From an uncultured cyanobacterium (GTDB lineage: Bacteria > Cyanobacteriota > Cyanobacteriia > Cyanobacteriales > Cyanobacteriaceae), in contig CAVVOP010000019.1 of assembly GCA_963749915.1 (NCBI GenBank), positions 166,634-230,633 of the forward strand: DNA of 64,000 nt. The letters are read 5' to 3'. The position numbers and the translations under genes are program-made. Positions 53,364-61,520 of the stretch are shown piece by piece; the first letter of the stretch is position 1; every line of letters starts with the position of its first letter. Below the pieces are notes generated by a model. The model saw only the letters and a list, made by a program, of their open reading frames with translations. It did no database searches and was not told the DNA's origin.

Positions 53364-56351
53364 ATGTCTGACTCTCTTACTACGGCAACGCCTGAAACAA
53401 AAAATGCGGCAACGACGGCTCATCCTCCGGTGCGGGAGAATCAGATGGAGGCTGAGGTGGATCGCTCTTCGATCGTGGGCGATCGGGCGATGAGGGCGAT
53501 CGGGGGTGGGAGTCCGGAAGCACCGCCAGAGCAGTTTGCGGGGGCATTGGGGCAGATGCAAAGTGCTTCAGGACAGGCGGGGATGTTGCGACAGTTGCAA
53601 CGCAGTTATGGGAATAGCTATGTGGGCAATGTGATTCAGGCGAAGCTGACTGTAAGCAAACCAGGGGATGTCCATGAGCAAGAAGCAGATTTAATCTCGA
53701 AACAAGTGATCAGTATGAATCCTTCTTCATCTCCCAAGATTGACCGTAAGTCTGATGAAGAAAAAAAAGAAGAGATTCAAACCAAACCCTTAGTAAATAC
53801 GATTATACCCATTGTTCAACGTCAGGAGATAGAAGAGGAAGAGAAAGAAGAAGAGATTCAAAGGTCATCCAATGGCGTAGTTCAAGCTCAAGCAGATTTG
53901 GAAAGTCGATTAAATGCTAATAAAGGTGGAGGGAGTTCTTTACCCGATGAAGTGCGATTATTCATGGAGCCAAGTTTTGGGACTGATTTTAGCCAAGTAC
54001 GTGTCCATAATGACAGCGCGGCAGCACAAATGAACCAAGAGTTAGCTGCTCAGGCGTTTACACATGGACGAGATGTTTATTTTGGGGCAGGGAAATCTCC
54101 TGAGAAAGATCTGTTGACAGCGCATGAGTTAACTCACGTAGTACAGCAGACAGGTGCAATATTGCCCTCCAGAGATCTACAAAAGCAATCTCTTAAAAAC
54201 TTAGATCGTATCGGTGCATCAAACTTAATTAATAGAAAATCCTCTGAAGATGAAAGAGCCGATCAAGTAAGAAATGCTTTTGATGAAACAGTCCTTGAAG
54301 AACATTGGGATGAAGCAGCCGTTATTCTCAATGGTTTCAATAATGATGACATCTCTAGAAAATTAGGAAAATTATCTACAACACAACTAGAAAAGATGAG
54401 AGGAGGTGTTGCCAGAAAGCTACGAGATTGGCCTCGTTTTAATGATATTCAAGATTTTATAGACAAAGCTATCTTAAAGTCATCTCAGAAAGCAAGTAAG
54501 GATGATTTGGTAAGAACAGATTTTGAACGAGCCGTCAATAGAGGAGATTGGGATCAGGCAGCAATTATTATTAATGGATTTAATGAGGATGATATCGAGA
54601 GAAGATTAAAGATACTTCCAGGTGAGCAACTATTCAATTTACGAAAGGGAGTTTTTAACAAGTTACAGGGATGGCCTCGTTATAAATATTTTATAGATCA
54701 AATTGAAAGTCAATCGACTAAAACATTAGAAAAGGAAAGAATAAAAAAAATTAATGATGATTATGAAAATAGTATAAAAAATGCAAGAACCAGACTGGGA
54801 AGTTGGAAAGAAGTTGCTCAAATTTTGAACGGTTTTAATGATGATGATATAGAGAAAAAGCTAGATGATCTATCTAGCGAAGAACTACAAGAGCTAGATC
54901 AATCTTCAGATTCTGAGAGAATTTCCAACGCAATTACCGAACAAACCTATAAAAGAGGTGAATTCGAGGTCGATCCTAACGCCGTTGAAGTGAGCCGAAT
55001 TTTTACTGACGAAATATTCAAAGATATTCATGGAGGAAAAGCAGCCGCAGTAATAAAAGTCTTAAATTTCTTAGGTAGTCTTTCTGATGAAGAAATAGAA
55101 AAAGCTCTAGTAAACCTCGATCTAGAGACATTGAAAATTCTTCAAAAAGAACATTCTAAGCAACCCAAATTAGGTCCTCTTTTCGATACTGTTGCTGGTG
55201 TAGATCGGTTGCAGATGTATATAGGTGCAGCAATAGCTTCTCTTCAACCTCAGGCAGAGGGATATGATGCTTCACAAGTAATTCATTTAGCTCTTGATTT
55301 ATTAGGGTTAATTCCTGTTTATGGAGAAATTTTTGACGGAGTAAATGCTTTTATTTATCTTATGGAAGGAGATGATGAAATGGCAGCAGTTTCCTTAGCA
55401 GCAATGGTACCTATATTGGGAACAGCTGCTACGGTAGGCAAGTTTGGAATAAAGGCTGCAAAAGCTACTAAAGTTGGTCTGTCTGTTGAAAAAACGGCTT
55501 TAAAAATCTCAGCAAAAGCAGTAGAAACAGCAGGTGTCAAGGGAATTGTAAAAGCCTTAAGCGCAGCGACAAAAGCTGTGGCAAGAGCTGAGAGTTCAAA
55601 AATAGCGCAATTAGGAGTATCACTATTAAAGGGAGGTGCCAAAACAGCTATTGAAATTGAATTGCAAGGACTTCTTAAAGAAATCATCCAAGATTTTATA
55701 TCGGTTTTTGGAGAATGGGCTAAAGATGAATTTAAAGATGATGGTTTTGACACACTTGATGCAAAAGAGGAAAATGATGAAATTGTAGTTTATGGAACTT
55801 ATAACCCTAAGATTAAAGTAGTATCTGTTTCTAAATTTGATTTAAACAAAACACCAGTTCTTCAACAGTTGATTAGGAACCGAAAGACAGCACTAACACA
55901 GGCTAGAAATCTTAGAAAGAGTAGCAAAAAACTGGCAGTGCAGGCACTAGCTAGTGCAAAAAAACAACGAGGGATAAAACTCTCTGCAAAAATCGGTGAA
56001 CACAATGCTCGACTTGTCATGAGAAAAGAATTTCCTAATGCTAAGATTCTTCTAGAAGGTCAAGGTTCAGGAGTTTTTGATTTTATTTATCGAGAGGGAG
56101 ATAAGATTATCATTGCTGAAGCAAAGGGAGGCAGTGGCAAGCGGGGTACGCGTATTTATAAAAAAACAGGAAAAGAAGTCAAGCAGGGAGAAAAGGACTA
56201 TGTACTATCCATTCTTGATGACATGAAGGATACAACACTAGCAAAAGAAATAAGAGATAAACTTGCAAATAATCAGGTGAGTTATATAGAAATTGCAGCC
56301 AGAGGACTCGGTAAATCACAGCCAACAGTCAAATTTACGAAGTTTTTCTAG
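53364..56351 (+). CDS. DUF4157 effector 1 with pre-toxin TG-like region and C-terminal PD-(D/E)xK-type nuclease
   Basis: LQRSYGN, QAKL, FGTDFSQVRVH...AQAFT.GRDVYF...LTAHELTHVVQQ; ALDLLGLIPVYGEIFDGVNA; GE...FDFIY...IAEAKGG. Confidence 0.85.
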   Translation: MSDSLTTATPETKNAATTAHPPVRENQMEAEVDRSSIVGDRAMRAIGGGSPEAPPEQFAGALGQMQSASGQAGMLRQLQRSYGNSYVGNVIQAKLTVSKPGDVHEQEADLISKQVISMNPSSSPKIDRKSDEEKKEEIQTKPLVNTIIPIVQRQEIEEEEKEEEIQRSSNGVVQAQADLESRLNANKGGGSSLPDEVRLFMEPSFGTDFSQVRVHNDSAAAQMNQELAAQAFTHGRDVYFGAGKSPEKDLLTAHELTHVVQQTGAILPSRDLQKQSLKNLDRIGASNLINRKSSEDERADQVRNAFDETVLEEHWDEAAVILNGFNNDDISRKLGKLSTTQLEKMRGGVARKLRDWPRFNDIQDFIDKAILKSSQKASKDDLVRTDFERAVNRGDWDQAAIIINGFNEDDIERRLKILPGEQLFNLRKGVFNKLQGWPRYKYFIDQIESQSTKTLEKERIKKINDDYENSIKNARTRLGSWKEVAQILNGFNDDDIEKKLDDLSSEELQELDQSSDSERISNAITEQTYKRGEFEVDPNAVEVSRIFTDEIFKDIHGGKAAAVIKVLNFLGSLSDEEIEKALVNLDLETLKILQKEHSKQPKLGPLFDTVAGVDRLQMYIGAAIASLQPQAEGYDASQVIHLALDLLGLIPVYGEIFDGVNAFIYLMEGDDEMAAVSLAAMVPILGTAATVGKFGIKAAKATKVGLSVEKTALKISAKAVETAGVKGIVKALSAATKAVARAESSKIAQLGVSLLKGGAKTAIEIELQGLLKEIIQDFISVFGEWAKDEFKDDGFDTLDAKEENDEIVVYGTYNPKIKVVSVSKFDLNKTPVLQQLIRNRKTALTQARNLRKSSKKLAVQALASAKKQRGIKLSAKIGEHNARLVMRKEFPNAKILLEGQGSGVFDFIYREGDKIIIAEAKGGSGKRGTRIYKKTGKEVKQGEKDYVLSILDDMKDTTLAKEIRDKLANNQVSYIEIAARGLGKSQPTVKFTKFF

Positions 56352-61520: not shown

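Follow-up and report, generated by a model that had tools for sequence, protein, structure and literature searches.

The stretch of DNA analysed here (the window) comprises 64,000 nt at the end of contig CAVVOP010000019.1 from an uncultured cyanobacterium, and carries the operon of a contractile injection system (CIS) followed by two large genes for putative cargo proteins, e1 (53364-56351, 995 aa) and e2 (58305-61520, 1071 aa). All coordinates are in window numbering and refer to the forward strand unless stated otherwise; labels beginning with P, L, G and X denote homologous proteins, loci, genomes and sequencing runs. The operon (28163-51610), as identified by Pfam, encodes an AAA ATPase, a Pvc16_N protein, two sheaths, two gp19 tubes, CIS_tube, a spike OB protein, gp25, Baseplate_J, and tail and propeller proteins. 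The ATPase (28163-30352; WHD and AAA domains in Pfam) is the putative cargo loader, and its orthologue directly adjoins the cargo genes in several relatives. Immediately before e1 lies a gene for a 550-aa protein (51677-53329), whose 3' end belongs to a junction that is repeated in the window. This protein is a probable tape measure, judged from its orthologues, since 6 of the 11 that could be aligned match PF19268 (CIS_TMP; best E 1.5e-5). The protein itself has no Pfam match, CIS_TMP was not found in its own genome, and a PDB sequence search with the tape-measure profile returned nothing significant.

In both putative cargo proteins a leader of about 92 aa, specific to the system, is followed by a generic linker of low complexity, then by a DUF4157 domain and finally by a variable payload with a nuclease-like tip, four modules in all. 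The original prediction, made from the DNA alone, had described two genes with a common N-terminus and DUF4157 in both, and this is what we find. Over their first 116 residues the two proteins are 74% identical, and PF13699 (DUF4157) scores above the Pfam cut-off in e1 (residues 193-265, 53940-54158; E 4e-27) as well as in e2 (residues 262-338, 59088-59318; E 1e-31). The HELTH (HExxH) motif stands at residue 258 of e1 and 328 of e2, and in both proteins the domain is N-terminal to the payload. The BLAST alignment of the two proteins stops at e1 residue 275; past DUF4157 they cannot be aligned, so that everything after this core differs, as had been proposed. The payload of e1 contains a segment repeated three times (54288-54953) and built on the core I-[IL]-NGFN-x-DDI, which was recognized in the sequence and belongs to no assigned family, its Pfam scores being marginal at best. 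Pfam did not bear out a resemblance of e1 residues 631-712 to a pre-toxin TG domain. A search of the organism's own genome returned just two copies of the leader and two DUF4157 domains, all of them in e1 and e2, and the further cargo that a genome-wide leader search had been expected to reveal did not turn up.

The leader had been estimated at about 109 aa, which proved too long. All 48 proteins retrieved with residues 1-92 align up to the motif YGNxYVGxVIQ, after which they continue with QAKL[T/I] (25 of 48), with QRK (18) or otherwise (5). The QAKL module, located at about residues 93-112 and written QAKLT-PGD-EQEAD in e1 (53640-53708), also occurs in cyanobacterial DUF4157 proteins that do not carry the leader: we examined 28 loci of such other types, and it is present in 21 of the 27 proteins that were readable, none of which matches the leader profile at its N-terminus. 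Finally, a contig from run X2 follows the window sequence as far as 53639, where codon 92 ends, and carries on as a QRK-type segment. The divergence of the homologues after VIQ, the presence of QAKL in other DUF4157 proteins and the X2 breakpoint together place the end of the specific leader at about residue 92. The 109-aa version was therefore rejected, because the residues past this point either vary among homologues or belong to a generic DUF4157-protein module. By homologue alignments and profile the e1 leader thus spans 53364-53639, with residues 59-92 its most conserved part, and by alignment to it the e2 leader spans 58305-58577 (residues 1-91). A PDB sequence search with the leader profile gave nothing significant.

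Within these limits the leader is specific to the system, and not general to DUF4157 proteins. A profile built from seven leaders matches 98 protein clusters among 1.84 billion representatives, and in 97 of the 98 the match begins within the first 45 residues; the leader is thus the extreme N-terminus, and it is common to both cargo genes of this system. Of 401 genomes of the phylum, 3 carry it, as opposed to 53 that have DUF4157, and the three, which had contributed to the profile, are the same ones that have a strong tape-measure orthologue. Two of these three, G131 and G405, each contain six DUF4157 matches but only two leaders. Scans of genomes and metagenomes produced 22 leader loci, 17 of them distinct, and in 13 of these the leader gene adjoins a tape-measure-like gene or the ATPase gene, the other four being contigs of 1.6-5.2 kb. 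Where carriers of related loci are named, most of them are cyanobacteria. DUF4157 is absent from 8 of 106 scanned leader-bearing proteins, three of which have tips in common with proteins that do contain the domain, and the leader profile thus also finds cargo without DUF4157.

The resemblance between the two leaders has two sources. Over the whole leader, e1 and e2 differ by 0.60 synonymous (dS) and 0.16 nonsynonymous (dN) substitutions per site (dN/dS about 0.27), which identifies it as being under purifying selection, but the differences are unevenly spread. The repeated DNA shows 17 differences in the 258 bases up to position 53465, followed by 66 in the next 226 (permutation P 0.0005), and the tract 53207-53465, which takes in the tape-measure tail, the spacer and codons 1-34, is 93% identical to the copy before e2. 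Codons 1-33 differ at only 4 of 99 bases, much like the upstream gene tail and spacer (91-94% alike), so that some of the likeness between e1 and e2 stems from DNA shared recently and not from selection. One could therefore argue that what has been conserved is mainly the DNA, duplicated recently or gene-converted next to the tape-measure gene, that beyond its disorder the leader has no function tied to its sequence, and that any disordered N-terminus would load. Ericson et al. indeed describe loading sequences that are disordered and not conserved between systems. In composition alone, the leader is richer in disorder-promoting residues than the payload (0.62-0.65 vs 0.52), with one aromatic residue in positions 1-58. 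Conservation of DNA alone is, however, difficult to reconcile with codons 34-91, where silent sites are near saturation (dS 0.8-1.7) and yet dN is only 0.23-0.28. It is also at odds with the seven positions that are invariant across 45 diverse proteins (P55, Q79, Y82, G83, N84, I91 and Q92) and with the conservation of residues 59-92, which at 0.76 exceeds that of DUF4157 (0.62). We thus regard this explanation as unlikely; the likeness of the two leaders results from both selection and recent sharing of DNA.

Behind the leader, the payloads have been exchanged. Clustering the last 130 residues of the 108 leader-bearing proteins of at least 300 aa gave 84 clusters of tips, and Pfam domains among the payloads include NucA/NucB, AHH, LHH, Tox-REase-9, Ntox1, Ntox4, Ntox16, deaminase, OmpA and HINT. 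Separate phylogenies of leader and DUF4157, an approach already suggested for this locus, give differing histories: across 85 proteins the leader and DUF4157 distances correlate with a rho of 0.15 (0.77 and 0.51 within the modules), the nearest neighbour is the same for both modules in 4 of 85 cases, and of the 22 leader splits that are supported, 10 are contradicted by the DUF4157 tree. At the level of sequence, the originally proposed arrangement of a conserved leader in front of swapped modules is accordingly well supported. Individual loci illustrate it from two sides. Comparison of the homologue P0003 with e1 gives 72% identity for residues 35-92 and 88-100% for residues 93-995, while L035 has a tape-measure gene 88% identical to that in the window, yet an unrelated cargo of 1233 aa in the same slot. 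In L041 (4689-5816) and L043 (235-1734) we observed cargo genes that have identical first 40 residues, and differ in length and C-terminus.

The DNA shared by the two cassettes extends beyond the cargo ORFs, starting some 157 bases before the ATG and within the preceding gene (53207-53693 vs 58148-58631, 82.5% identical). The window contains three copies of this junction, one before each cargo gene and a third that has been reduced to a 68-base remnant of tape-measure tail, spacer and ATG (56943-57010; 87% identical to both others), after which comes a 19-codon open reading frame (ORF). In a contig from run X5, an e2-type tail is joined to the spacer of the remnant (58275 to 56978). Crossovers map both within the leader and at its end, and the leader probably doubles as an exchange point for cargo. 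In L027 and L031 the second cassette shares with the first just the last 10-20 bases before the ATG, and not the tape-measure tail, which indicates that the long shared arm is particular to the lineage of the window.

The original prediction also held the tips to be nuclease-like, and structural modelling agrees, more firmly for e1 than for e2. The e1 tip (55944-56351) was modelled with a pLDDT of 81, and its best fold match is 3fov (VIA Z 7.8, rmsd 4.0 over 95 aligned residues), followed by ACE1, LHK-Exo and Hjc/Hje, most top rows being of the PD-(D/E)XK type. A Z below 8 is moderate, and the best Foldseek E is 0.01. The residues E879, D906, E919-x-K921, Q941 and Y946 match the residue pattern given for Tox-REase-1 and -6, namely E, D, ExK, Q (Y) (PMC3482391), and the D and ExK are kept in all five aligned rows. 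Given the moderate Z, it is the combination of fold, motif and Atlas match that makes the tip look like a nuclease domain with the PD-(D/E)XK (restriction endonuclease) fold. Homologues of this tip comprise three proteins, four plasmid records and one weak match in 300 other genomes of the phylum. One of them, in L052, precedes an Imm49 gene within an array of toxin and immunity genes; L052 is a Pseudoalteromonas piscicida plasmid with short toxin cassettes that have a common N-terminus, alongside WHH nuclease, SMI1/KNR4 and Imm49 genes. The e2 tip (61080-61520) has one homologous protein and none in the 300 genomes. Five of its top six fold matches are of the GIY-YIG type, with Z 4.2-5.0 from a low-confidence model (pLDDT 54); a plant Grx domain among them is one that we take to be of this type. 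The Atlas match to Tox-URI2 scores 0.91, on 124 shared features only. Residues Y952, K967-x-G969 and E1020, all kept in the homologue P0049, correspond to the Y, KxG, E signature of Tox-URI2 (PMC3482391). We less surely consider the e2 tip a GIY-YIG, or Tox-URI2-like, nuclease candidate. PDB sequence searches with both tips returned nothing significant, and PHROGs nothing useful.

Taken together, we find it likely that e1 and e2 are two cargo genes of the adjacent CIS, loaded by way of their leaders by its AAA ATPase and ending in nuclease-like tips, and that cargo is swapped by recombination at the tape-measure tail, spacer and leader. The ATPase of the operon would recognize the leader and thread the unfolded cargo into the tube lumen, as in AlgoCIS and the Photorhabdus virulence cassette (PVC); contraction would expel the cargo, and the tip could then cut nucleic acid in the target cell. 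Homologous recombination with related CIS loci would cross over in the tape-measure tail, spacer or leader and replace or add everything downstream, the crossover falling there because these segments are the only DNA common to the cassettes. The closest precedent is the AlgoCIS of Algoriphagus machipongonensis, in which Cgo1 and Cgo2 fill the lumen; both have DUF4157 and a disordered N-terminal domain in common, and their C-termini are different (PMC8894135). A 2026 preprint (10.64898/2026.05.27.728243) describes the N-terminal domain as required for loading, DUF4157 as dispensable, and fusions to the domain as able to load reporters. The present locus resembles AlgoCIS in having two cargo genes with a similar N-terminal domain, a central DUF4157 and different C-termini, together with an AAA ATPase in the cluster, and the dispensability of DUF4157 there has its counterpart in the leader proteins that lack it here. 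By analogy with AlgoCIS, the leader is likely to be a loading signal.

It might instead dock the protein on the tape measure, the cap or the spike, or serve as a self-inhibitory or chaperone segment. The strict co-occurrence of the leader with a tape-measure-like gene, which it usually adjoins, would fit docking, and so would a DUF4157 protein of Streptomyces that has a tape-measure-like cargo as its partner and for which tests against spike proteins are described (PMC13277306). Self-inhibition would account for the tandem cassettes in L027, L031 and L036, which have no listed ORF between them and for which protection other than an immunity gene is needed. Against these readings, the ATPase gene is equally linked to the leader in the relatives, and in AlgoCIS, which has this architecture too, loading of the lumen depends on the ATPase; we therefore judge these alternatives improbable and retain ATPase-dependent loading through the leader. 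Several points weigh against this interpretation nonetheless. The Streptomyces example shows that N-terminal loading of the lumen is not the sole route described. The phylum counts are partly circular, the profile having been built from the very genomes that match, and the 398 misses alone are informative. Neither tip scores above a Pfam cut-off, which leaves that of e1 without assignment to a numbered Tox-REase family. The low-confidence model of the e2 tip has T4 EndoII as its top match at Z 5.0, tied with the unrelated protease AvrPphB, and UvrC, Eco29kI and I-TevI come next. Some tips in the family, such as OmpA, are not obvious nucleases.

Base composition had also been put forward as a sign that the tips are of foreign origin. 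The GC content of e1 does fall after the leader, from 0.58 to 0.35-0.46, but this is the level of the host (genome GC 0.375), and the e1 payload moreover has a near-identical copy in P0003. In e2 a GC-rich section does begin close to the predicted position of 59080, where it reaches 0.635 over the DUF4157 block (59070-59324), the sole strongly GC-rich one. It does not persist, for the sequence after it is at 0.48-0.52, below the protein's own leader at 0.58. HIP1 octamers, of which the genome has 1588, are absent from the C-terminal parts of e1 and e2, as had been noted. At the genome rate this absence is not significant (P = 0.16; of 1738 genome windows of 2.7 kb, 41% lack the octamer), whereas at the rate of the CIS operon P = 0.004. 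The several HIP1 sites ascribed to the e2 leader reduce to one within the first 109 codons, out of four in all of e2, and the e1 leader has none. Foreign origin of the tips on grounds of GC and HIP1 was accordingly rejected as weak.

The CIS locus as a whole is probably imported into this host, since Pvc16_N is found in none of 19 other genomes of the same family. Scars surround the cassettes. Directly after e1 is a gene split over two frames (56406-56808); both pieces resemble one phage hypothetical protein, covering its start (38% over 55 aa, E 1e-10) and its end (E 0.002). Contigs from runs X1 and X2 are gapped over this interval, so that other strains differ by indels there. Between the cassettes follow the junction remnant and then a pair of genes recognized by Pfam as UPF0175 and DUF3368 (57227-57963). 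Next comes a chimeric 100-aa ORF (57968-58270); its end corresponds to the final 40 codons of the tape-measure gene (92.5% over 40 aa), and its N-terminal piece has no match on plasmids or in the related loci retrieved. The segment 57805-58273, with the gene pair and the chimeric ORF before e2, also occurs in runs X2 and X3, minus 15 bases at 58133, so the junction before e2 is not unique to this assembly. Directly after e2, on the reverse strand, the ORF list and Pfam give a Y1 transposase-like gene (61630-62301). The minus-strand region 61630-63732 we take to consist of this gene, a HIP1-rich stretch and small gene pairs resembling toxin-antitoxin modules. The absence of Pvc16_N from related genomes, together with the split ORF, the remnant, the chimeric ORF and the transposase, could be read as decay: an import whose genes are intact only because it is recent, with no working particles in this host. 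Yet all 20 ORFs of the operon and both cargo ORFs are open, and we regard decay as quite improbable. A qualification concerns the tail-baseplate region (42956-45894), where two ORFs starting at 42956 and 43726 (255 and 722 aa) stand in place of one protein of about 900 aa in L010, L029, L031 and L032, an arrangement that may be a split or a fission.

Classical polymorphic toxins are followed directly by an immunity gene. Here e1 is followed by the split ORF alone, which from its position might be guessed to be an immunity gene, and between e2 and the transposase-like gene no immunity ORF is present. Silent orphan C-terminal cassettes are likewise absent downstream: each of the two cassettes is a complete gene, and the 68-base junction is the sole relic. 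Promoter and terminator scans remained at chance level. Frequent lack of immunity is also described for the PVC-metallopeptidase (DUF4157) polymorphic toxins defined in 2012, in which variable tips are exchanged by recombination behind a constant DUF4157 (PMC3482391). The present proteins resemble these toxins in their constant N-terminal part, in their variable nuclease and other tips, and in their presence in cyanobacteria (PMC3482391, PMC8213781, PMC11297309). They differ in what is constant, namely the peptidase there and the leader here, DUF4157 being exchanged or absent. DUF4157 and PT-HINT, given as mutually exclusive in PMC3482391, occur together in four leader proteins (P0045, P0062, P0078 and P0088).

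The overall concept is thus already published, from variable toxins behind DUF4157 (2012) through Cgo1 and Cgo2 of AlgoCIS (2022) to engineered N-terminal loading (2026 preprint), and the novelty implied when the leader was proposed as a programmable delivery tag falls away with it, loading tags from PVC and AlgoCIS being in print. In PVC, N-terminal signal peptides are selected by the AAA ATPase Pvc15, and the leaders fall into sequence groups (PMC11495950). They differ from the present one in occupying residues 1-50 with rare homology (PMC11495950), and the PVC cargo proteins Pdp1 and Pnf are described without DUF4157. AlgoCIS belongs to another CIS lineage and host; what is described there is pairwise similarity within one system, in contrast to a family of 98 clusters with an invariant core and crossover sites here. 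The thylakoid CIS of Anabaena likewise has two DUF4157 proteins, Alr3311 and Alr3312, detected in particles and proposed as lumen cargo (PMC8894136). Because the present leader occurs in only 3 of the 53 DUF4157-bearing genomes of the phylum sample, the present CIS is probably of another type. What we add is the boundary and invariant core of the leader, the evidence on crossover sites, and the motif [ILV]QR. Loading sequences known so far have been described as disordered, with little conservation. For an experimenter, the roughly 100 natural variants of the present leader, its invariant core and the sharp ends it has in nature indicate which residues to change and where a tag ends. In the article passages covered by the literature searches we found neither the leader family nor the [ILV]QR repeats described; the family may already be listed in the predicted-toxin tables of PMC11297309 or among the alignments that the 2026 preprint gives as Extended Data.

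The [ILV]QR motif recurs at residues 78-168 of e1, at residues 78-347 of e2, and in their homologues. There are 100 occurrences between leader and DUF4157 where 5.1 are expected, and within 60 aa after HExxH it is found in 58 of 97 proteins, against an expected 3.9. It is thus about 16-20 times above the shuffled expectation before and just after DUF4157, while being rare in payloads and host ORFs, and it is present in 21 of 27 DUF4157 proteins of other types. A single phrase search combining 'DUF4157' and 'QR motif' found no paper, which does not show the motif to be undescribed. One could speculate, though we hold it rather doubtful, that the leader serves two purposes, the 34-residue core ending in YGNxYVGxVIQ being a recognition sequence for the ATPase of one CIS lineage and the same DNA acting as a crossover arm for exchange between distant cyanobacteria, and that the [ILV]QR sites are grip or cleavage sites, possibly for DUF4157 itself. 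If so, the motif would offer a direct test of what DUF4157 does.

Two further observations concern the operon. The ATPase gene, at the operon head in the window, stands just before or after the cargo genes in most relatives, and in L035 a 71-base piece of its start is retained downstream of the cargo (10582-10652). The DNA of a probable tail fibre (50405-51610) is 91% identical to that of L035 until 51030, where the alignment stops, pointing to an exchanged tip; in orthologues the terminal domain is an H-type lectin (L035, L027) or Peptidase_S74 (L033), and the end of the window copy has no Pfam match.

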